A stretch of DNA of 64,000 nt from a bacterium. GTDB lineage: Bacteria; Babelota; Babeliae; Babelales; JAUWHS01. Positions 962-62,692 of the stretch are shown one piece after another. The notes under the pieces were generated by a model. That model searched no databases and was not told where the DNA came from. It saw only the letters and a program-made list of their open reading frames with translations. The stretch covers positions 5,387 through 69,386 of the forward strand of contig JBDRFY010000050.1 of assembly GCA_043818275.1 (NCBI GenBank), in the 5' to 3' direction. Position 1 is the stretch's first letter, and the number at the start of each line of letters is the position of its first letter. The position numbers and the translations under genes are program-made.

Positions 962-2944
962 ATGGAGAAATTAATGAAAATTTTAAAATTTTTCTTATTG
1001 TTTTTATGTATATCTACATTAAATAATCAATTATTTGGCGATATAAAACAAAACCAAATCAAACAAATCATAACCGAAATAAACAAATTTCTGCCAAAAG
1101 AAAAAGCATTAGACCAACAAAAAATAATTAACGATAATTTTTTATTTTTAGAAAATTGTAATATAACAGACAAAACATTATCTTTTTTATTTCCGTATTT
1201 ATTAAAAATAAATAAATTATATCCTATAAAAATATTAAATCTTTCATACAACAAACTAACAAATATCCCGGACAAAATCGAAAAACTCAGTCAACTTGAA
1301 ACTCTTGATTTCGAACACAACAACCTTGGATTTATTTCTCCAAAAATAAAAAATCTTGAAAATTTAAATTTTTTATTTCTCGACAACAATGAATCTATTA
1401 TATATTTACCATACGACCTTAAATCACAAAAAGATCTAAAAATAACTGGTTACTATGATTTTGAAATAGAAAAAGCAACAAAAAAAGCTGCCAATATTGT
1501 AATTATTTTAGATCGTGAAAATCAGATACCTCCTGAACAAATACAACAAGATGTGATGCTAGATGAAATGGATATAAATCTCAAAAATTTAAGTCCAATT
1601 TTAGTTTCTGGAGCAGTATTAAAAAATTTTCTAGAAAGAGACAAAATAATTCCTGGCAGAAAAATAATCCCCCAAATATACGCCTTTTATAAAATTGATG
1701 ATAGTGATTTGTATTTATTGTTACCAAAAGGAATAAATTTTAAAGAAGCTTTTAATATTGATGCAAGACAAAAAAAGGATCTTGAATATTTAAAAGAAAG
1801 ATTAGAAGAAAATCAGTGGCCAAATGATAAAGGAGATTATGAGACTGATAATTGGCTTGAAGGAATCATAAAAATATTCAAAAAAGATTCTGATTATTGG
1901 TGGAATATTATTTTAGCTGGTCACGGAGCCCCCGAAGAATTTATTGCTGGTATGACTAAAAATGATTTTAAAAGTCTCATGCAATTTTTAAATCAACCAA
2001 ATATAAACACTTTTTTCTTTTATTATGACACCTGTTTTGGAGGTGGAACAAATTTAGTAGAAGCATATGAAATAATAAAACAATCCATAATTGATGTACC
2101 GCTTCTCAAATTCATGGTTGTCTCAGGTACAACAAGAAGCGTTGTAAGTCAAGTCGTAGATACAAATTATTTTGATTTATTTTTAAATTTAAATGAATTG
2201 CTAAATTTTTTTCAGCTGCCGCCTGAAGAGCAAAAAAATTTAGGCCCTGATCCAATTAATGGATTACTAAAACTGGTAAAAAATAAAATTGGAAAATATA
2301 TATTATCTTCAAATTTTCCACTAATTAAATTTCCTAATTCAAAATTTTTTATAAGTATTCGAAAAAATCCACGAGTATTTGTAATAAACAATGTTTTGCT
2401 TAAAAAGCATCAAATCGAAAAAAAAGAAATAGAAATTCCCAAAGATGTAAACATTCTTTTTGTATATCCAAACATTGTTGATGTTCCCGTTAAAATTACG
2501 GGAAAAAAATCACCTCTAATTTATTCTCTTGATCCTGGACCAACGATACATTTTTTTAAAGAAATTGTGGTTGAAAATGTAAAACAATTTGATCCATTCG
2601 ACTTGATAATCGATTACTTTAAAGAAGAAGAAGAAGGAAAAATCTTTATAGTAAAAGAAATCATAAGCAAAGATATGACATACAAAAATGTAGTTACTGA
2701 TCCTGAAAAAGAAGATATTTTTTATAAAAAAAATAATTTTTTTTATTACAACAATTACAAAATAGAAGAAAAAAATAAAATGAATGAAAATAAATTTAAA
2801 AAAGAAATCACAAAAGCAATCGAAAATAACTTTAAAATTTCAATGGAATTATTCAAACCTTTTGCGCCATGGCAAACAGACAGAAAAGAGTTAGTTGACT
2901 ACATAAATAAAGAATTAGGAATTAATGTAAAAATCACAAACTAG
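962..2944 (+). CDS. Secreted leucine-rich-repeat protein with a C-terminal legumain/caspase-like (clan CD) His-Cys pattern
   Basis: AGGAG lies 5 nt before the ATG. N-terminal hydrophobic signal (KILKFFLLFLCISTLNN). LRR units LNLSYNKLTNIPDKIEKLSQLETLDFEHNNLGFISPKIKNLENLNFLFLDNN. Later IILAGHGAPEEFIAGM...(about 30 aa)...FFFYYDTCFGGG resembles the DHGapG...EACeSGS spacing of peptidase C13. Confidence 0.6.
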   Translation: MEKLMKILKFFLLFLCISTLNNQLFGDIKQNQIKQIITEINKFLPKEKALDQQKIINDNFLFLENCNITDKTLSFLFPYLLKINKLYPIKILNLSYNKLTNIPDKIEKLSQLETLDFEHNNLGFISPKIKNLENLNFLFLDNNESIIYLPYDLKSQKDLKITGYYDFEIEKATKKAANIVIILDRENQIPPEQIQQDVMLDEMDINLKNLSPILVSGAVLKNFLERDKIIPGRKIIPQIYAFYKIDDSDLYLLLPKGINFKEAFNIDARQKKDLEYLKERLEENQWPNDKGDYETDNWLEGIIKIFKKDSDYWWNIILAGHGAPEEFIAGMTKNDFKSLMQFLNQPNINTFFFYYDTCFGGGTNLVEAYEIIKQSIIDVPLLKFMVVSGTTRSVVSQVVDTNYFDLFLNLNELLNFFQLPPEEQKNLGPDPINGLLKLVKNKIGKYILSSNFPLIKFPNSKFFISIRKNPRVFVINNVLLKKHQIEKKEIEIPKDVNILFVYPNIVDVPVKITGKKSPLIYSLDPGPTIHFFKEIVVENVKQFDPFDLIIDYFKEEEEGKIFIVKEIISKDMTYKNVVTDPEKEDIFYKKNNFFYYNNYKIEEKNKMNENKFKKEITKAIENNFKISMELFKPFAPWQTDRKELVDYINKELGINVKITN

Positions 2945-3497
2945 ACAAAATCTTTTCGGATAAATTTTCTGGAATAATTTTTGTAATTTTTTTCAACTCC
3001 TTCAAAACCCATTTTTGTCTATTTTTATCTTCCTGAACAAAATCTAAAATGTTTTGAATTAAATCAAAAATTAATTCACTTGAAATTTTTTGTTGTTCAA
3101 ACAAATTAATCAAATCAACAAATTTGGCATTAAATTTTTCTGGCCAGTCAAGTTCTGTGTAATAATTAATCGCTTTAATTAAATAATCAGAATTTTCAGG
3201 CTCAAGAGTTAGCAAATGTTCATAGACAAAAACAGCAGATAATAATTTTTTTTCTTCCTGATATAAAATTGCTGCATGCTGATATTTTTCCAAAGCTTGG
3301 CGATCTTGGAAAAACCACAAAAGATCTCCTTCAAGTTGAGAAACATAAGCCTTATCATCAAATGAATGCGACAGTAAACGATAAAAAGTTAACGCTTTTT
3401 CTTTTTCTCCACGATTTACAAGCTCAGCTAACTTAAACCAAGCAATACTTGACTGTTGTTTTTCCTGATCCTGCAAATTTTGCTCGGGTTGCTTCAT
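2934..3497 (-). CDS. Hypothetical protein, TPR-like helical repeats
   Basis: ORF 2934..3554. The more likely start is MKQPEQ at 3497, preceded by AAGGAGAG. Helical-repeat-like sequence (ALTFYRLLSHSFDDKAYVSQLEGDLLWFF, AAILYQEEKKLLSAVFVYEHLLTLEPENSDYL). Confidence 0.5.
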   Translation of the reverse strand: MKQPEQNLQDQEKQQSSIAWFKLAELVNRGEKEKALTFYRLLSHSFDDKAYVSQLEGDLLWFFQDRQALEKYQHAAILYQEEKKLLSAVFVYEHLLTLEPENSDYLIKAINYYTELDWPEKFNAKFVDLINLFEQQKISSELIFDLIQNILDFVQEDKNRQKWVLKELKKITKIIPENLSEKILSSL

Positions 3498-3652
3498 CAC
3501 TACTCTCCTTTTTTCCGCCCATAATAATACAGGCCTTTTATTTTCATAAGCCACCCCTTTGAAACAGGGATAAAGTAATGATATAATTCTTATCTATTTA
3601 AAGAAATAGTTTAGTAAACAATTTTTAAAAGACCCTTCTGGAACGAAATAAA

Positions 3653-5239
3653 ATGAATAATATTGCAACTGAAAAATGGAAGGTTAATAAAAAAGCCGCT
3701 CTTCTTGGCGGAGGGGAAGAAAAACAGGAAAAACAAAAACAACTTGGAAAACGTTGCACACGAGAAAGAATTAAATTACTAACAGATGAAAATAGTTTTG
3801 AAGAAACTGATCTTTTAGTCTGCTCTCCGTTTTTAAAAACCAAAAATTACACTGATGGAGTTGTAACCGGTTTTGCAAAAATCAATAACATTCAAATTGC
3901 AATTTATGCTCAGGATTTTACACAAAAAGGAGGATCTTTAGGAAAACATCAGGCACAAAAAATTTGTAAAATTATGGACATGGCAGCAAAAATTGGTTGT
4001 CCAATAATCGGAATTCTGGATTCTGGCGGCGCCAGAATTGATGAAGGAATTCATTCTTTAGCCGGTTATGGAGAAATTTTTATTCGCAATGTTCGCTATT
4101 CCGGAATTATTCCACAAATATCTTTAGTTTTAGGCCCATGCGCAGGTGGAGCGGTTTATTCTCCAGCGTTAACAGATTTTATTTTTACAACAGAAAATAT
4201 CAGTAATCTTTTCATCACAGGACCACAAGTAATCGAACAAGCTCTTCATCAAAAAATTTCAAAAGAGGAGTTGGGAGGAGCATCAGTTCACACAACAAAA
4301 TCAGGGGTTGCACATTTCAAAACAAAAACAGAAGAAGAATGCTTTGAAAAAGTAAAAAAGCTTTTGTCGTATTTGCCAAAAAATTATTTATGTGAACCGG
4401 AAAATAATCAATCACAACAAAACGATTTTACAAATCTTTTTGAATCAGATCAGGCTCATTTTTTAAAAAAGGGAAAAACAAAACTTGATGTAAAAAACAT
4501 ATTACCCGAAAATTCTAATCATGCTTACGACGTAAAAGAAGTTATAAACCGAATTGTTGATTCAAATAGTTTTCTTGAAATCCAGGATTCTTTTGCAAAA
4601 AATATTGTTATCGGTTTTGCAAGAATTGAAAACAAGGTTGTTGGGATTATTGCAAATCAACCGCAAGAACAAGCCGGTGTTCTTGATATTGATGCATCAT
4701 GCAAAGCGGCCCGTTTTATAAATTTTTGTGATAATTTCAGTATACCAATTATTACATTTGTTGATGTCCCGGGTTTTATGCCGGGATTAGAACAAGAACA
4801 CAACGGAATTATTCGACACGGTGCAAAACTTTTATATGCTTATGCTCAGGCAACTGTTCCAAAAATTACTGTAATTTTACGTAAAGCCTATGGGGGCGCG
4901 TACATAGTTATGGGCAGCAAACAACTTGGCGCGGATTTTAATTTTGCCTGGCCGACAGCACAAATTGCAGTGCTTGGAGCTAAATCAGCAGTAACAATTT
5001 TGCACGGACGTAAATTAAATGAAATTAAAAATGAAAAAGAGAAAGTTGAATTGCAAACAAAATTGGAAAATGAATATGAAAAAGAATTTGTTCATCCATT
5101 TATTGCCACGGAATATGGATATATTGATGCAATTATTGAACCTGATGAAACAAGAAATCATTTAATTAAAGCATTGCAAATTACTGAAAATAAAGTTGAA
5201 CATTTGCCTAAGAAAAAACACGGCAACATCCCGTTATGA
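3653..5239 (+). CDS. Acyl-CoA carboxylase carboxyltransferase subunit (propionyl-CoA carboxylase beta / methylmalonyl-CoA decarboxylase alpha family)
   Basis: DSGGARIDEGIHSLAGYGEIF, GPCAGGAVYSPALTDF, FVDVPGFMPG and RKAYGGAYIVM are characteristic carboxyltransferase motifs. Length is 528 aa. Confidence 0.85.
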   Translation: MNNIATEKWKVNKKAALLGGGEEKQEKQKQLGKRCTRERIKLLTDENSFEETDLLVCSPFLKTKNYTDGVVTGFAKINNIQIAIYAQDFTQKGGSLGKHQAQKICKIMDMAAKIGCPIIGILDSGGARIDEGIHSLAGYGEIFIRNVRYSGIIPQISLVLGPCAGGAVYSPALTDFIFTTENISNLFITGPQVIEQALHQKISKEELGGASVHTTKSGVAHFKTKTEEECFEKVKKLLSYLPKNYLCEPENNQSQQNDFTNLFESDQAHFLKKGKTKLDVKNILPENSNHAYDVKEVINRIVDSNSFLEIQDSFAKNIVIGFARIENKVVGIIANQPQEQAGVLDIDASCKAARFINFCDNFSIPIITFVDVPGFMPGLEQEHNGIIRHGAKLLYAYAQATVPKITVILRKAYGGAYIVMGSKQLGADFNFAWPTAQIAVLGAKSAVTILHGRKLNEIKNEKEKVELQTKLENEYEKEFVHPFIATEYGYIDAIIEPDETRNHLIKALQITENKVEHLPKKKHGNIPL

Positions 5240-10875: not shown

Positions 10876-12144
10876 TTAATCGGTATTACAGCCATATATT
10901 CTTCCATATGTTTCTATTTTGCATCCCGATAAAATTTCCATATCAATATCATTTCTTGGATCTGAACCATCACCCCACTGGATTACAGGATAATAAGGAA
11001 CATTTGGAAAAGGAAACAGAGAAAATGTCCATGTATCTGGAATACTTCCATCATTTTTCAGGCATTCCAAAATAACTCTGTTATTAAAAATAACTGTCCC
11101 TTTAGTCAACACAATTCCACCAACATCTTTTAGAACTCCCAGAGCGGGCCACTCATTTCCAGCGGCTGGATAACTTAAATAAAGTTGAATTGTATCTACA
11201 GGAATCTGAACTCTACAATTATTAAAAAATAAGCGGGAAGACCTGTCTGCCATCACCAATTTTTTTTGGGACAAATCCATAATCCAAAGACTACCCAGCC
11301 ACAAATATTCACATGGCTGATGATATTTAAAAATTGTTCCAACATCCATCATAAAAGTTGAATTAGGCGCAATTTGCATCACGCCCTGGAAATATGGATA
11401 TAAATTAGGATGTTTCCAATATGTTGCAAATGCAAACATTTTATTTTCACCACGAACTCTTACATCGTTGTAAATATAAAGACTTCCATAATCAAAAGAA
11501 TAAGTATCACTTAAATCTAAAATCACATCATCTAAAGAAATTTTCGATGTATTGGACTGAGTCGCTATTCCTCCTCCATTTATATAAGCAGCCCCACCCT
11601 TTAGATTTTTTACAACTGCATTTTTTATCATAAAATTATTAGAACCAATAATAATTAATTGAGCCGCGTCTTCCAAATATAATTCGTTTCCCTGCATATC
11701 AATTGTTATATCATTTAATAATCTAATTTTTCTGTTTGCAGGAATTGTTAAATTTCCATGACAAATTATACTGTTACCATTTCCTTTAATATAAACTGTA
11801 GAGCCCGCAGCAGCACCAATTTGCAAATCAACTGAAGAACCGATATGTAAATCAGAAAGTAGACCAATCTGAGCACCAGAATCCAATCTAATTGAACCAT
11901 TTCTAATTGGACACGCAAGACCAAGATTTACAGTACAAGTTGGGTCAACATGCAAACCATATTGATAATCAACCATTCCCCAAACATCATAAGTTCCACC
12001 ACCAGCTGTTGTGTATTGCTCTTCTGAACCCAATGCATAAACGGTATTACTTCCTATTGCGTTAGAAGTGTTTAAGGCATCAAGAGAATAAAAAAGAATT
12101 AATAAATTTATTAAAAACAACAAAACAAATTTATTTTTTATCAT
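10876..12144 (-). CDS. Secreted small (S-type) protein 1: beta-solenoid-like module only; function unknown
   Basis: Signal peptide followed by conserved LNTSNAIGSNTVYAL. IRNGSIRLDSGAQIGLLSDLHIGSS, ITIDMQGNELYLEDAAQLII and SDTYSFDYGSLYIYNDVRVRG are colinear with the L-type C-module. Confidence 0.85.
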   Translation of the reverse strand: MIKNKFVLLFLINLLILFYSLDALNTSNAIGSNTVYALGSEEQYTTAGGGTYDVWGMVDYQYGLHVDPTCTVNLGLACPIRNGSIRLDSGAQIGLLSDLHIGSSVDLQIGAAAGSTVYIKGNGNSIICHGNLTIPANRKIRLLNDITIDMQGNELYLEDAAQLIIIGSNNFMIKNAVVKNLKGGAAYINGGGIATQSNTSKISLDDVILDLSDTYSFDYGSLYIYNDVRVRGENKMFAFATYWKHPNLYPYFQGVMQIAPNSTFMMDVGTIFKYHQPCEYLWLGSLWIMDLSQKKLVMADRSSRLFFNNCRVQIPVDTIQLYLSYPAAGNEWPALGVLKDVGGIVLTKGTVIFNNRVILECLKNDGSIPDTWTFSLFPFPNVPYYPVIQWGDGSDPRNDIDMEILSGCKIETYGRIYGCNTD

Positions 12145-12176
12145 AACTACTCACCTTTATTAATCTTAATGTTCCT

Positions 12177-12332
12177 CCCCGCTCGTCCTGAGCGAAGTCG
12201 AAGGATATCGAGCGACAAGCTAAAAACAACCAATTATTTAATGTAGAATTAAACTTTATATTGTTCATTTCAATAATTTTATTTCATTTAGTTTACCGCT
12301 CGTAATCCTTCGACTACGCTCAGGACGAGCGG
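12177..12332. repeat. GC-rich inverted-repeat element (family A) in the only long intergenic gap of the array
   Basis: Left copy ccccgctcgtcctgagcgaagtcgaaggatatcgagcg (12177..12214). Right copy ccgctcgtaatccttcgactacgctcaggacgagcgg (12296..12332) is its near reverse complement. An AT-rich spacer of about 80 nt separates them. Confidence 0.8.
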
Positions 12333-12423
12333 ATAGAGTTAATATTCTATGAATAAAGATACATTATGGCATAACATCAACTCACAAAATAATATCTCTA
12401 TAACTTTCAAATAATCAACCCTA

Positions 12424-14541
12424 TTAATTTGGATTGTAATCCAAATACCCTGCAATGTTCACCATAGCGCCCGAAAGCACTTTGGTATCAACACTGTTTT
12501 CTGCTGCACCATCTCCCAAAGTTATTGCTTTATTTATATCGGTATTTGGAATTCCATTATTTAAATTTTTCAGATTAACGTAATTGTCAAAAACCATAGT
12601 TCCTTTTGTAAGCAATATTCCATTGTAAGTTCCATTAGCAGGAGCAGCAAAAGTAGATTGATCCAAATATAAAACAGATGTCGCGTCGCTTAATTTAAAT
12701 AAATCTCTCGCTCCAGAATTTGGAACATAGGACAATGTTGTACCCAAATCAAAATAAATAGTTGAATGTGGATTAATAAACCACGGCATATTTGATTCAT
12801 AAATAAGTTTTGAAGTACCTGTTATTTTTAAATCATCATCTAAAAATAAAACCCCTTGAGTAAATGTATAATCTCCGGAAAGTTCAATCTCAACATTTTG
12901 AAAAGATAAAAAACTATTTTCAGACATTTCAATAACTGAATTGGCTGCATCCTGCAAACCTTTAAGAACTAAATTTCTTAATGATAATGTGACACCATTA
13001 TCAATTTTTAATTTCGCGTTTTTATGCAAAGTTAAAGCGGCTCCTAAACCATCAATTACTGTTGTATCTGTAAATTGTAAACTTTGATTTTCATAAAGAG
13101 ACAAATCATTTCCCAGAAAAATTGCATACCCAGAACCTGCAATTTTTCCGCCGGTCATAATGTAAGTTGTTGAAGAAAAATAAAGATCCGATTGCAATTG
13201 CATTGTTCCACCATTAAGTGACAATGGAGATTCTAATGCTTCAGGAGCTACCCAAATTGTTTCCGGATCTTCTAATGTTGTATCAGAATTTGTAGTAAAA
13301 CCTTCTTCTTCGTGATAACCAGAAGGAACAGATCTTAATCCTGTCATAGAAGTTATGTTTGGCATTTGAGCCAAATAATTAATAACAGAACGAATAACTC
13401 CACCAACCAATCTATACCAATAACTTAGGTAAGGATCAAAACACCATGCATCACCATAATAACCCATCTCAGTCAATGACGTTTCTTTTCTAACCTCAGT
13501 CAAAATTGCCGAGTAAGGAGCTGTTTTGGAAAGTTTTTCCAGTTTATAAAAAATAGGATAAGGCGAACCACCTGGTGTAATAATTATTCCAATATTATCT
13601 CTACGTCCAACAGAAATATTATCTATTGTGTGACCTGATAATCCTAAAGATACTTCATTCCAGGCTTCTGTTGTCCGGTCCCAAATTACTAATTTATCTC
13701 CCCCTGCATCACCATGAACACCTAAAATAATTATATCAATTAACCCATCTCCACCAACTGAAATTGATTTATCCGGATACAAAGCGCCCACACTTCTGTC
13801 TATCCACTGATTTGATTCATTGTGCCAATTATAAACATAATAAGTTGGACCACCATAATTTACCCCGAGTGCCCAAATATGATTTTTATCACAAACAGAC
13901 AAATCAAAAAAATCATTAATTGCCCCGGGGACAGGTTTTGCTATCCATGTTAAATTTTTGTCATCCCAGGCGTAAGGAGCTCCCGAAGTCAAACCACCAT
14001 AAGCTCCGCCAATTCCCCAGACAGTATTTTCTCTTCCCGCGGAAAGTAATAAAGGCGCGTCTCCTTTTTCATGCCATGGAAATTTTTGATCTTCAATCTG
14101 AGTTTCACCATCAATATCAATAAAATAAAATTTACTACCCTTTATTGCCCAAACATTTGCCGCCGAGCCAACACTAATTTGACTTACATCTCCACCCCAG
14201 GCTTTATCGTAATAAGGAATACCCGCCAAATTAAAAGAATTCAAATAAGACCTTGCTTCAAAAACATATTCTTTTTTTAACCTTAATGAATCAAGAGCAT
14301 TAAAAACAGTCTGATCTTTATAATTAACTATTCTGTCCGGTTCGGTAAATTCAACAAGTGTGCCACCTTTCCATCCAATTAAAGAACTTCCGTTTGCCAG
14401 ACAAAATTGCGATGTTGTGTCACTTAAAACCAAACTTGATGAAATATTTGAAAAAGGAGTTTTATATTCCTGCAACGCATTAAGTGAAAAAAATGAGATC
14501 AGACTTAACGCAAAAAGATTTATTTGAAATATTCCTTTCAT
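12424..14541 (-). CDS. Secreted large (L-type) protein 2: tectonin-like propeller + beta-solenoid-like C-module
   Basis: Signal peptide. Blades ISVGSAANVWAI, LSAGRENTVWGI, LSVCDKNHIWAL, ISVGGDGL, ISVGRRDNIGII, MGYYGDAWCF. C-module LNGGTMQLQSDLYFSSTT, LSGDYTFTQGVLFLDDDLKITGTSKLIYES. Ends in DYNPN. Confidence 0.85.
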   Translation of the reverse strand: MKGIFQINLFALSLISFFSLNALQEYKTPFSNISSSLVLSDTTSQFCLANGSSLIGWKGGTLVEFTEPDRIVNYKDQTVFNALDSLRLKKEYVFEARSYLNSFNLAGIPYYDKAWGGDVSQISVGSAANVWAIKGSKFYFIDIDGETQIEDQKFPWHEKGDAPLLLSAGRENTVWGIGGAYGGLTSGAPYAWDDKNLTWIAKPVPGAINDFFDLSVCDKNHIWALGVNYGGPTYYVYNWHNESNQWIDRSVGALYPDKSISVGGDGLIDIIILGVHGDAGGDKLVIWDRTTEAWNEVSLGLSGHTIDNISVGRRDNIGIIITPGGSPYPIFYKLEKLSKTAPYSAILTEVRKETSLTEMGYYGDAWCFDPYLSYWYRLVGGVIRSVINYLAQMPNITSMTGLRSVPSGYHEEEGFTTNSDTTLEDPETIWVAPEALESPLSLNGGTMQLQSDLYFSSTTYIMTGGKIAGSGYAIFLGNDLSLYENQSLQFTDTTVIDGLGAALTLHKNAKLKIDNGVTLSLRNLVLKGLQDAANSVIEMSENSFLSFQNVEIELSGDYTFTQGVLFLDDDLKITGTSKLIYESNMPWFINPHSTIYFDLGTTLSYVPNSGARDLFKLSDATSVLYLDQSTFAAPANGTYNGILLTKGTMVFDNYVNLKNLNNGIPNTDINKAITLGDGAAENSVDTKVLSGAMVNIAGYLDYNPN

Positions 14542-19959: not shown

Positions 19960-20028
19960 AATCAAAATTATAAATTTTATTTTGTTGAAGAAATTTTATT
20001 TTGAAATTTATTATTTTTTATAAATAGA

Positions 20029-20303
20029 GATCCTGAACTTGATTCATAACTGTCCAAAGTGTTTGAAATGTTTTAGATAAGGATAAAATTAAACTCTCCC
20101 GTTCGCCCTGAGGAGGAATTTTGAAAAAATTTCGTCTCGAAGGGTAATCCAAATAAAAAATTGATTTTATAAGGAATATCCTTCGAGACGCTCTCAATCG
20201 CTAAACGCATTTCGAGCTCCTCAGGACGAACGGATGGGGTAAAAATTTATTTTGTTTAAAGGTTTTTTATCACTTTGGACAGTTATGAATCAAGTTCAGG
20301 ATC
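20029..20303. mobile_element. Non-coding nested palindromic element (MITE-like) with perfect 33-bp terminal inverted repeats
   Basis: gatcctgaacttgattcataactgtccaaagtg (20029..20061) is the exact reverse complement of 20271..20303. An inner inverted pair, cccgttcgccctgaggagg...cgtctcgaagg (20098..20146) versus ccttcgagacg...ctcctcaggacgaacgg (20178..20234), belongs to repeat family A. No ORF. Confidence 0.75.
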
Positions 20304-20363
20304 TCTAAATTTTATATAAGCAATTCAATTTATAGTTCCAACCAAAAATTAAGGAGTCAAAAA

Positions 20364-23085: not shown

Positions 23086-23161
23086 GGGCCCATAGCTCAG
23101 CGGTCAGAGCAGTCGGCTCATAACCGAAAGGTCCCAGGTTCAAATCCTGGTGGGCCCACCA
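23086..23161 (+). tRNA. tRNA with a CAT anticodon (elongator Met or lysidine-type Ile2), encoded CCA
   Basis: Cloverleaf read by hand: gggccca/tgggccc acceptor stem, tagctcagcggtcagagc D arm, ctcataa anticodon loop, ccaggttcaaatcctgg T arm. It has no C1:A72 mismatch, so it is not an initiator. The C4/C5 acceptor pairs resemble Ile2. Confidence 0.9.
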
Positions 23162-23337
23162 TACTTCGCTAAAGCTTCGTATGGCGCAGCCATTTTTTAA
23201 ATGATTGATTTTGAATTTTAAAGAAACTTTCAACTTAAAAAGCGAAGTATGCCCTTCTCCGTCCTTCGCATAAAGCTTCGGAGAACTCTGCGAAGTTTGA
23301 CACGAAGCAAAGTTAGCTCGAAGAGCGAAGTAGGGCA
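23162..23337. repeat. tRNA 3' trailer module plus a block of CTTCG/CGAAG-rich GC islands (family C)
   Basis: tacttcgctaaagcttcgtatggcgcagccatttttt, then gcgaagtatgcccttctccgtccttcgcataaagcttcggag, tgcgaagtttgacacgaagc and gctcgaagagcgaagtaggg. Related strings recur at 47086..47367 and 61823..62449. Confidence 0.7.
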
Positions 23338-34678: not shown

Positions 34679-34717
34679 CTCAAATTATTATTCATAAATT
34701 TAATTTTTCTACCGAAC

Positions 34718-34853
34718 TTGTCATCCTGAACTCGTTTCAGGATCCACACTCAGTTAAACTAATCACAATTTTTAAAATTATAGTAAATCATTTTACAAAG
34801 CTTACCCATCAAAAATTATAAACATAGATCCTGAAATAAATTCAGGATGACAA
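34718..34853. repeat. Inverted-repeat element of the GATCCTGAA family (family B)
   Basis: ttgtcatcctgaactcgtttcaggatc (34718..34744) and gatcctgaaataaattcaggatgacaa (34827..34853) are near reverse complements. Each is itself a hairpin. The spacer is AT-rich. Confidence 0.7.
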
Positions 34854-34932
34854 AATAGGATTAAAATAATATTTTGGAATCACAACTTAGGCTTAATTTT
34901 AATAAAAAGTAATTTAATCACAAGAAATTAAA

Positions 34933-47141: not shown

Positions 47142-47233
47142 GGAGAGATGGCTGAGTGGTCGAAAGCGCACGATTGGAAATCGTGTATGTCACGAAAGTG
47201 GCATCGAGGGTTCGAATCCCTCTCTCTCCGCCA
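47142..47233 (+). tRNA. tRNA-Ser (GGA), encoded CCA
   Basis: ggagaga/tctctcc acceptor stem, ttggaaa anticodon loop, long variable arm tatgtcacgaaagtggcatc, gagggttcgaatccctc T arm. Confidence 0.9.
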
Positions 47234-47367
47234 GTCTTCGCTCTGACGAGCTTCGCCTGGCGCGGCCAGTTTTTTAAATGAATTGATATTATTAGAAAAA
47301 GTTAGCGAAGACTGTCCGGCGAAGTAAAACTAACATTTTAAATTTCGTAGTACGAAGACGGACGGCT
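47234..47367. repeat. tRNA 3' trailer module plus family C CGAAG-rich repeats
   Basis: gtcttcgctctgacgagcttcgcctggcgcggccagtttttt, then agcgaagactgtccggcgaagt (compare agcgaaagctgtccgccgaagc at 62389) and gtacgaagacggacggc. Confidence 0.65.
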
Positions 47368-58003: not shown

Positions 58004-58213
58004 GTCCGAAGTGATTTGAAATTCTTGAATTAACTTTATTTTAGCTAAAACGCCCCACCCGCTCGTCCTGAGCTTGTCGAAGGAAATCGAGCGGGTGGGA
58101 TATAAATTCGAGCATATTAAGAGAGTTTATTAATTTTATTATTCAACTGTTCAAAATCACTTCGAACAATCCTGAACCATGGACTGAACTAGATTCAGGC
58201 TTGATTCAGGATC
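58004..58213. repeat. Nested palindromic element related to 20029..20303 (families A + B)
   Basis: Outer pair gtccgaagtgatttgaa (58004..58020) and ttcaaaatcacttcgaac (58150..58167). Core hairpin cccacccgctcg tcctgagcttgtcgaaggaaa tcgagcgggtggg (58054..58099). The right end is ttgattcaggatc (58201..58213). Confidence 0.7.
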
Positions 58214-58234: not shown

Positions 58235-58555
58235 ATGATCAAATTAGATGAAAAAGTTTTATTAAAACTTGCAAAACTATCAGCGCTAAAACTTTCTGAC
58301 AACGAAATTCCCAAATTCACAAAAGATTTAAATGAATTATTGAAACACTTTGAAGAATTAAACAACATAAAAAGCTCAAAAGAATACCTGGCAACACGCA
58401 ATAAAAATATTTTCAGACAAGATAAGGCAATAAAACAAAATTCAGAAGAAATAATGGCGCAAGCGCCAAAAACACAAGATAATTATTTTGTTGTTCCATC
58501 CGCCATAGCCTTGGCGAAGGCGGACAAGTCAGTTCAAAATAAAAAAGATAATTAA
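58235..58555 (+). CDS. gatC: Glu/Asp-tRNA amidotransferase subunit C, with a C-terminal extension
   Basis: LAKLSALKLSDNEIPKFTKDLNELLKHFEELN...DNYFVVP. About 20 extra residues follow; part of them is encoded by a GC-rich repeat copy (58496..58525). Confidence 0.85.
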   Translation: MIKLDEKVLLKLAKLSALKLSDNEIPKFTKDLNELLKHFEELNNIKSSKEYLATRNKNIFRQDKAIKQNSEEIMAQAPKTQDNYFVVPSAIALAKADKSVQNKKDN

Positions 58556-61777: not shown

Positions 61778-61822
61778 CCAATCAGTTAAATATTTGATAA
61801 AAATAATATATTGAAATTTACA

Positions 61823-61957
61823 TGCGCCTCCCTCGACCCTTAAGGGCTCGGGACAGGTTCCGCTTCCCCCTTCGCTCTTCGAGCTTCGGAGGACAAGCAA
61901 TTGGATAAATAATTTCACCGTTCTCCCTGAGAAGCCACCATGGCATCTCGAAGGGTT
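61823..61957. repeat. GC-rich repeat block upstream of tRNA-Arg (family A and C copies)
   Basis: ccttcgctcttcgagcttcggagg (61869..61892, family C) and ccgttctccctgagaagc...atctcgaaggg (61918..61954, family A, reverse orientation). Confidence 0.65.
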
Positions 61958-61986
61958 AAATAAATTGAAATATAAAAATTATACGT

Positions 61987-62063
61987 GCGCCTGTAGCTCA
62001 ATTGGATAGAGTACCGGACTTCGAATCCGTTGGTTGCAGGTTCGACTCCTGCCAGGCGCGCCA
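61987..62063 (+). tRNA. tRNA-Arg (TCG), encoded CCA
   Basis: gcgcctg/caggcgc acceptor stem, cttcgaa anticodon loop, gcaggttcgactcctgc T arm. Confidence 0.9.
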
Positions 62064-62136
62064 TCCTACGCCAAGGCTTCGGATGGCAGGCCATCTTTTT
62101 TATGGAATTTTTATTACATACCTATAACTCAAATGA

Positions 62137-62200
62137 ACCCTTCGACTAGCTCAGGACTTCGAGTTTCCTAAACTCGGGGTTCACTCCCGAAGAATTGAGG
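62137..62200 (+). pseudogene. tRNA-Arg(CCT)-derived fragment (pseudo-tRNA) fused to the family A repeat core
   Basis: ccttcgac-tagctcagg-acttc-gagtttcctaaactc-ggggttcactcccgaag. It shares tagctcagg and a 15-nt exact anticodon stem-loop (gagtttcctaaactc) with the tRNA at 62236. The D arm does not close. Confidence 0.45.
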
Positions 62201-62235
62201 GACCGCAGATCAAAAATGAATTTGACATTGAATGT

Positions 62236-62312
62236 GTGCCTATAGCTCAGGTGGATAGAGCGAGAGTTTCCTAAACTCTAGGCCGCAGGTTCGAGTCCTG
62301 CTAGGCACACCA
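62236..62312 (+). tRNA. tRNA-Arg (CCT), encoded CCA
   Basis: gtgccta/taggcac acceptor stem, agagt ttcctaa actct anticodon arm, gcaggttcgagtcctgc T arm. Confidence 0.9.
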
Positions 62313-62449
62313 GCTTTCGCTAAAGCTTCAGCTGGCATGCCAAATAAATTAATGAATTTTTAAATAACTTATAAGAACCATTGATAGCGAAAGCTGTCCG
62401 CCGAAGCTCTTAAGAGCGTAGGAGGACTGGCCAAAAATTAATAAAAATT

Positions 62450-62692
62450 ATGCATTACGTTTATATCATTCAATCAATAAATTACCCCCAAAAACGATAT
62501 GTTGGATGCTCAAACAATATAAAAAAACGTTTGACCAATCACAATTCAGGAACTACTTCTCATACCAGAAAATATAAACCTTGGGAACTTATTGTATGTA
62601 TATGCTTTAAAAATAAAGATAAAGCCGTAGAATTTGAAAAATATTTAAAGTCTGGTTCAGGAAGAGCTTTCTCTGCAAAAAGATTTTTCTAA
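62450..62692 (+). CDS. GIY-YIG nuclease-domain protein (small stand-alone YhbQ-like type)
   Basis: HYVYIIQS...KRYVGCSNNIKKRLTNHNSG...KYKPWELI...A.EFEKYLKSGSGRAF. Confidence 0.8.
   Translation: MHYVYIIQSINYPQKRYVGCSNNIKKRLTNHNSGTTSHTRKYKPWELIVCICFKNKDKAVEFEKYLKSGSGRAFSAKRFF

Follow-up and report, generated by a model that had tools for sequence, protein, structure and literature searches.

Short GC-rich imperfect palindromes, intergenic and often nested, are found in AT-rich or compact genomes as REP/BIME elements, Rickettsia palindromic elements (RPE), the GC clusters of yeast mitochondria and the double-hairpin elements of fungal mitochondria. Pieces resembling tRNA also occur in non-tRNA transcripts, where the t-elements of plant mitochondria and the anticodon-arm mimics of the thrS operator act as processing or protein-binding signals. 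Further described systems of this kind are the partial tRNA copies beside tRNA genes, which represent duplication remnants or att-site scars, and the tRNA-derived SINEs of eukaryotes.

Here, we analyzed a GC-rich block within the 172-nt spacer between two tRNA-Arg genes in a 64,000-nucleotide stretch of DNA (the window). A sequence-only reading had described this block as a pseudo-tRNA that links a dispersed repeat, family A, to the 5' half of a tRNA. By their general descriptions, the palindromic elements named above are similar to the repeats of the block, and the likeness to RPE extends to at least one hairpin that lies in frame at the end of a gene (gatC). Unlike for REP, RPE and GC clusters, however, no RAYT or transposase was seen in a Pfam scan of 10 window ORFs, and the 18-mer of the family A core is also found in unrelated GC-rich contigs. 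The block shares with partial tRNA copies the short exact copy beside an intact gene and the variable island downstream, but it contains the anticodon arm only, lies upstream of the gene and is embedded in a palindromic repeat; in contrast to att-site scars, its interval holds no integrase or second att repeat. It further differs from t-elements and the thrS operator, as far as can be told from sequence, in not being conserved in relatives and in having no acceptor/T-arm minihelix. The SINE comparison goes back to the earlier reading, in which the 5' part of a dispersed repeat was taken to be tRNA-like (box A), but the dispersed copies in the window carry no tRNA sequence beyond a 7-nt match at chance level, and the internal-promoter logic of SINEs does not, to our knowledge, apply in bacteria. 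Overall, we favor, with moderate confidence, the view that the block is a chimera of a palindromic repeat and a local tRNA fragment, probably without tRNA function.

An insertion between two tRNA-Arg genes

The window represents bacterial chromosomal DNA with a G+C content of ~30%. It harbors the housekeeping genes gatCA, dus, mreC, gap and rpsB, four tRNA genes and one SRP RNA, and its proteins find their best matches in metagenome-assembled genomes labelled Candidatus Dependentiae or Babeliales. The features in and around the spacer are the following:

61987–62063, + strand: tRNA-Arg(TCG) gene (ARAGORN; Rfam RF00005, 69.5 bits)
62061–62086, + strand: family B trailer hairpin starting from the CCA of this tRNA, CCATCC/TAC/GCCAAGGC/TTC/GGATGG (sequence reading, regex scan)
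62081–62102, + strand: terminator-like hairpin GGATGG-CAGG-CCATCT, followed by a T run
62121–62137, + strand: AT-rich stretch CCTATAACTCAAATGAA, resembling positions 3–19 of tRNA-Arg(CCT) (local alignment)
62129–62137, + strand: left copy, TCAAATGAA, of a direct repeat flanking the block (read from the sequence)
62138–62209, + strand: GC-rich composite block (the 'pseudo-tRNA'), an insertion relative to related loci (alignment; 3' parts unique in the window)
62139–62157, + strand: family A core ccttcgactagctcaggac, reading TCCTGAGC-TA-GTCGAAGG on the minus strand
62154–62182, + strand: 13-bp hairpin GGACUUCGAGUUU-CCU-AAACUCGGGGUUC, the only robust predicted structure (folding)
62160–62180, + strand: anticodon arm of tRNA-Arg(CCU) type and start of the variable loop (15-mer identity; 20-mer identity to 25 tRNA genes)
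62176–62188, + strand: 'T-arm-like' GGGGTTCACTCCC (right-flank p=0.27; no covariance-model match)
62210–62220, + strand: right copy, TCAAAAATGAA, of the direct repeat, which also opens the conserved tRNA-Arg(CCT) leader and aligns with L007
62236–62312, + strand: tRNA-Arg(CCT) gene (ARAGORN, Rfam), with its anticodon arm at 62264–62278 and a D-arm 9-mer at 62243–62251

Related loci were retrieved using homologues of MreC, which led to the syntenic loci L007 (58% identity), L008 and L009 (66%) and L155 (63%). A corresponding search of genome contigs with the Dus protein gave only relatives at 31–36% identity and no synteny. The tRNA-Arg(TCG)/tRNA-Arg(CCT) pair also occurs in L007 and L008; the sequence of L009 stops behind tRNA-Arg(TCG). 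In the orthologous spacers of all three loci the block is missing: a clean alignment gap covers at least 62138–62209 and is framed by the aligned trailer of tRNA-Arg(TCG) and the aligned leader of tRNA-Arg(CCT). Because three related Dependentiae loci are without the block, we consider it an insertion of about 72–105 nt. No tRNA genes were found in L155, L156 and L157, and these loci are therefore uninformative on the spacer. The direct repeats TCAAATGAA and TCAAAAATGAA that bracket the block might represent a target-site duplication.

On the other side of tRNA-Arg(CCT), the gene content differs in each genome. The window encodes an 80-amino-acid stand-alone GIY-YIG protein (62450–62692), L007 a serine recombinase together with an HTH protein (11133–12896), and L008 an ORF of unknown function, an HTH protein and a Fic protein (2605–4528). 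This suggests that the region 3' of tRNA-Arg(CCT) is an integration hot spot.

The anticodon-arm copy and tests for a tRNA

The block is neither a tRNA nor a recognizable tRNA pseudogene. Searching 61780–62460 with the Rfam tRNA model (RF00005, cmscan, E<=10) returned only the two real tRNAs and none within 62064–62235. ARAGORN called no gene in the block at its default threshold or at relaxed thresholds from 95 down to 80%; at 70% it yielded only an implausible Ser(cga), and its metazoan-mitochondrial mode for armless tRNAs gave nothing but a minus-strand artefact. The term pseudo-tRNA, in the sense of a recognizable cloverleaf, can consequently be dropped: neither the covariance model nor ARAGORN on the + strand makes a call. 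This settles the annotation question, as the spacer contains no third tRNA-Arg gene or usable pseudogene. The T-arm-like segment is indeed present as ggggttcactccc at 62176–62188, but it does not significantly resemble real T arms (p=0.27). Folding of the whole block gave a stability like that of shuffled sequences (z about -0.6), and a mini-cloverleaf in which CTTCG/CGAAG would close two hairpins found no support either (folding z=-0.65).

The copy of the anticodon arm, however, is real. The 15 nt at 62161–62175 (gagtttcctaaactc) are identical to 62264–62278 of tRNA-Arg(CCT), as had been claimed; the distance of 75 nt given for it separates the first base of the 15-mer from that of the tRNA-Arg(CCT) gene. 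When all four tRNAs were compared with the window (blastn-short), this 15-mer was the sole significant tRNA fragment (E=0.003). Local alignments between spacer and tRNA scored 30–38, compared with 13–15 in the null, and 0/1000 dinucleotide shuffles scored as high. The 15-nt identity with the neighboring tRNA-Arg(CCT) thus far exceeds chance. The 20-mer at 62160–62179, comprising the arm, the C-G pair by which its stem is longer and the GGGG after it, had 25 matches in metagenomes. All of them (25/25) fall within genes that ARAGORN calls as tRNA-Arg(cct), in organisms that are unrelated and for the most part GC-rich. It follows that 62160–62179 is a bona fide tRNA-Arg(CCU) anticodon arm and no look-alike. 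Both the 15-mer and the 20-mer hence show significant identity over at least one arm, which we took as the mark of a tRNA fragment. The 3' parts of the block do not occur a second time within the window; for copies outside tRNA genes, CGAGTTTCCTAAACTCG is a proposed query beside the 72-nt block.

Where does this arm come from? The anticodon stems of tRNA-Arg(CCT) in the relatives differ, with TGAGA/TCTCA in L007 and ACAGA/TCTGT in L008, whereas the copy and the window's own tRNA-Arg(CCT) have the stem GAGT/ACTC in common. This favors a local and relatively recent origin, after the lineages split. Counting against a local copy is that the identity extends over 20–21 nt with canonical tRNA-Arg(CCU) of GC-rich bacteria, namely the arm CGAGT/ACTCG followed by GGGG(T), compared with 15 nt for the resident gene, so that a foreign source remains conceivable. 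A foreign tRNA-Arg(CCU) fragment could have been brought in by an integrative element using the tRNA locus and now persist as an att-site scar. The variable island 3' of tRNA-Arg(CCT), with its GIY-YIG protein in the window, serine recombinase in L007 and HTH and Fic proteins in L008, would suit such a history. However, with the fragment on the upstream side of the intact gene and a mere 61 nt away, the geometry is unusual for attL and attR, the interval is without an integrase, and the three extra matching positions are explicable by perfection of the stem. We therefore regard a foreign origin as improbable.

A different explanation would be the decay of a tandem duplicate. Here, two insertions of GC-rich repeats would have split a full second tRNA-Arg(CCU), which G->A changes then eroded, and its anticodon arm would have been spared through its position in a hairpin under selection or gene conversion. 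In line with this, three blocks are colinear with the tRNA, namely CCTATAACTCAAATGAA with positions 3–19 (p~0.003), the 15-mer, and GGACCGCAG with GGCCGCAG, and all mismatches between the first of them (62121–62137) and the tRNA are G->A. The left flank CCTATAACTCA (62121–62131) weakly resembles tRNA positions 3–13 (p~0.003, 6/2000 shuffles), and 62121–62137 is possibly a decayed 5' part of a tRNA. CCTATAACTCA and CCGCAG are both colinear with the tRNA, an arrangement that the decay of a whole-gene duplicate explains about as well as a short templated copy does. On the right flank of the 15-mer, however, similarity to tRNA is not significant (p=0.27), no similarity to an acceptor stem was found in the block region, and covariance model and ARAGORN gave no signal. 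Moreover, 62121–62137 and 62147–62155 are rival candidates for the D arm, and an arm conserved at 15/15 positions beside a D-arm candidate at 13/17 (14/20 over positions 1–20) needs extra assumptions. A decayed duplicate thus appears unlikely.

The only robust structure predicted for the block is the hairpin at 62154–62182, which has a minimum free energy of -15.6 kcal/mol (z=-4.4; 0/200 shuffles as stable) and is also the centroid structure. Such stability could point to a functional RNA, i.e., a hairpin co-transcribed with tRNA-Arg that serves as a t-element-like processing signal or as an anticodon-stem-loop mimic binding a tRNA-Arg-specific factor. The compensatory C-G pair that lengthens the stem would agree with this, and the conserved, covarying 3' trailer structures of the clade's tRNAs make signals at the RNA level plausible. 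On the other hand, the hairpin is absent from all three related loci, and in the predicted fold the 7-nt anticodon loop closes to 3 nt and is therefore not presented as an anticodon loop. In addition, the terminator-like site separates tRNA-Arg(TCG) from the block, and no promoter-like site was seen upstream of the block. Altogether, a function of this kind seems distinctly improbable.

Family A repeats and a proposed origin of the block

The family A core at 62139–62157 was confirmed as ccttcgactagctcaggac, as were its difference by one inserted base from 12307–12326 (ccttcgactaCgctcaggac) and the reverse-complement copy with one mismatch inside 58054–58099, which lies at 58065–58083 (0 expected in shuffles). 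To these three a fourth core at 12186–12204 can be added, so that the 64 kb contain four cores, all of them between ORFs. Besides the core in the block, these are:

12186–12204, + strand: family A core TCCTGAGCGAAGTCGAAGG within a hairpin at 12179–12224
12307–12326, + strand: family A core ccttcgactaCgctcaggac, inverted relative to 12186–12204 and forming with it a MITE-like inverted repeat (about 12157–12355)
58054–58099, + strand: family A hairpin with its core at 58065–58083, 3' of matE, with a counterpart at the orthologous site in L007

The hairpin CCCACCCGCTCG-TCCTGAGCTTGTCGAAGGAAAT-CGAGCGGGTGGG at 58050–58102 is highly stable (-30.7 kcal/mol, z=-5.0). Family A hence has the dispersed intergenic copies and stable hairpins that characterize REP/MITE-like repeats. 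With respect to mobility, L007 and L008 are without the block, which is flanked by TCAAATGAA/TCAAAAATGAA, and the matE copy is positionally conserved in L007. Longer relatives of the form CCCTGAG-[insert]-CTCGAAGG are found at 20106–20143, 20180–20226 and 61925–61954 and in L155. An Rfam search of the family A copies returned only generic long-hairpin miRNA matches below threshold, and the literature offered nothing relevant on the core, on repeat-translated peptides or on palindromic repeats in Dependentiae.

Two further inverted repeats were observed in the window. The first, a MITE-like repeat (20025–20307) located between two ORFs, has arms of 91 nt, 78% complementary and 101 nt apart; family A'-type cores (CCCTGAG...CTCGAAGG) are found within the arms, and GATCCTGAACTTGATTCA forms their ends. 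The second (34705–34866), beside the end of a 908-amino-acid ORF, contains TTGTCATCCTGAACTCGTTTCAGGATC and GATCCTGAAATAAATTCAGGATGACAA and represents a different hairpin family.

The sequence-only reading offered two alternatives, a tRNA-derived repeat family (SINE/MITE-like) or a repeat recombined with a duplicated tRNA-Arg. For the former, family A and the block would together constitute a mobile element comparable to a SINE, with the copy in the spacer keeping the ancestral state. The segment tagctcagg at 62147–62155 does equal tRNA positions 8–16 (62243–62251), but the family consensus includes only GCTCAGG (7 nt) of this D-arm match. For this one copy, the match of the 9-mer TAGCTCAGG to the D arm has P=0.005 (shuffled cores), GCTCAGG or AGCTCAGG is common to the consensus and D arms (P 0.03–0.10), and the loop begins with a T-loop-like TTCGA. 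But with family A sequence on either side of the 9-mer, only its variable 'TA' (2 nt) is tRNA-specific. The other cores have at most 7–8 nt in common with tRNA 5' halves (P 0.03–0.10 vs shuffles), the regions around them do not exceed dinucleotide shuffles in their similarity to tRNAs (p 0.08–0.97), and none of the other copies in the window has a piece of an anticodon arm or a T arm.

The distribution of the core beyond the window gave a similar picture. The pattern TCCTGAGC-N1-6-GTCGAAGG occurs in at least 120 IMG/VR contigs, and 62/128 of the matches listed are an 18-mer with CT or TT in the gap. This 18-mer, TCCTGAGC[CT]TGTCGAAGG, is found in at least 62 unrelated contigs (L010–L129) with a G+C content of 0.32–0.74, where it is commonly preceded by CCTG, CTCG or CCGTTCG. 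It stands well above a reversed-pattern control, which had 58 matches in the whole collection with gap lengths spread. Among the external 18-mers listed, 0/64 have a tRNA within 300 nt. An arrangement of external cores in hairpins with covarying extended stems was also considered and rejected, as only 6% have at least 6/7 complementary flanking bases (null 1.4%). The GIY-YIG protein had no match in a tblastn search of 129 loci, 120 of them with the core, and shows no link to family A. Consequently, a tRNA ancestry of family A is largely refuted and appears very improbable, which removes the suggestion that the main repeat family of the window descends from tRNA. The sequence-only reading is thereby borne out in one half: the core does not pass the shuffle control, while the 15-nt match is real, with weak support from its flanks.

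Its second alternative, recombination of a repeat with a duplicated tRNA-Arg, describes the locus better, as the arm adjoins the core inside the insert. Read on the minus strand, the block consists of CCCCGAG-[TTTAGGAAA]-CTCGAAG directly followed by the family A core, which fits CCCTGAG-[insert]-CTCGAAGG, and this A/A' pattern also occurs at 20106–20143, at 61925–61954 and in L155. According to the chimera that we favor, 62138–62209 would be a lineage-specific insertion made of the GC-rich nested-hairpin repeats that are common in this AT-rich Dependentiae-like genome, and the interior of its second hairpin would have been copied from the anticodon stem-loop of the tRNA-Arg(CCU) 75 nt downstream. 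In other words, the loop of a repeat unit would have been replaced by the anticodon loop of the neighboring gene. We infer that copying was local and proceeded either by partial duplication or by template switching between nearby hairpins, both partners having a GAG/CTC microhomology in common. Quasi-palindrome correction could then have perfected the stem and introduced the extra C-G pair, and the outcome would be a stable 13-bp hairpin but no cloverleaf. Two observations described below bear on this proposal: the interior of a hairpin at the 3' end of gatC is reverse-complemented between the window and L155, which indicates that hairpin interiors are rewritten in this lineage, and partial copies of the tRNA-Arg(TCG) 5' end are fused to GC-rich hairpins nearby, which we also count in its favor. 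Most likely, the block remains in place as a piece of spacer, DNA or RNA, that is neutral or weakly structural and presumably devoid of tRNA function. It would thus be a fairly ordinary kind of object with a local twist, but provides a concrete case of a palindromic repeat capturing a piece of a neighboring structured-RNA gene, and bears on the remodelling of compact, AT-rich, endosymbiont-like genomes by hairpin repeats.

Hairpin modules at tRNA genes and gatC

Hairpins and partial tRNA copies are concentrated at this locus, which can be called a hot spot for both. All four tRNAs of the window run from their encoded CCA into a family B hairpin (23159–23184, 47231–47260, 62061–62086 and 62310–62335). 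The same hairpin follows most tRNAs of the related loci L007 (10933–63), L008 (2370–2424, 2546–2571) and L158 (11070–95), and is absent from more distant Dependentiae (L160). It has the form CCA-NNN/TTC/GC..GC small hairpin/TTC/N'N'N'-TGG, followed by C-NNN-GCCA and usually a T run. NNN varies among tRNAs and covaries, and a second (G)CCA(N), a repetition of the tRNA end, closes the element. Downstream of five tRNAs, at a distance of 35–70 nt, we found an 'anti-trailer', a 10-nt exact reverse complement of the trailer (CA-NNN-TTCGC vs GCGAA-N'N'N'-TG). The trailer/anti-trailer pairs are:

Window: 23160–23169/23242–23251, 47232–47241/47305–47314 and 62311–62320/62387–62396
Relatives: L007 10934–43/10980–89 and L158 11071–80/11155–64

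Four different NNN occur among these five pairs, and the orthologous tRNA-Ser genes show compensatory changes (GTC/GAC in the window vs ACT/AGT in L158). The same variant of the module is found at tRNA-Ser of the window and tRNA-Arg(TCG) of L007. Furthermore, the centroid fold of 62309–62432 uses the pairing between trailer and anti-trailer (z=-3.5). The pair may serve as a structure in RNA processing, may be a nested palindrome, or may mark a MITE whose terminal repeats span 10 bp. Kink-turn, hammerhead and bulge-helix-bulge motifs were considered for the UGA/GAA and UUC/UUC internal loops and rejected, as the required bulge or core nucleotides appear by inspection to be absent. This system at tRNA 3' ends is, in our view, more interesting than the block and the better target for study.

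One could go further and assume that the tRNA genes of this clade are wired into a dedicated system of GC-rich hairpin modules, consisting of the CCA-end hairpin with its UUC/UUC internal loop, the covarying 10-nt anti-trailer and partial tRNA copies on hairpins, in which the hairpin at 62154–62182 would be a working module, for example a decoy or processing signal for tRNA-Arg. We consider this a speculative idea with a low chance of being correct. If true, the modules might be mobile DNA with tRNA genes as its targets, or might control the 3' processing of tRNAs together with termination.

A family B hairpin is also found as an in-frame C-terminal tail of GatC in the window (58496–58524) and in L155 (461–486); L007, L156 and L157 are without this tail. 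Its stem TCCGCC/GGCGGA is identical in window and L155, and the interior is reverse-complemented (ATA-GCCTTGGC-GAA vs TTC-GCCAAGGC-TTC). Such a flipped hairpin inside a coding region is reminiscent of Rickettsia palindromic elements.

Upstream of tRNA-Arg(TCG), the leader and the first 6 nt of the tRNA are copied as T(T/A)TA(C/T)ATGCGCCT and fused to GC-rich hairpins with variable interiors, after which CAGGTTCCGC or GCAATTGGATAAA follows (T-arm-like and D-loop-like). One such copy each is present in the window (61820–61910), L008 (2205–2275) and L009, and three tandem copies are present in L155 (3818–4100). Within these units, GGACARGCAATTGGATAAA is kept across three lineages.
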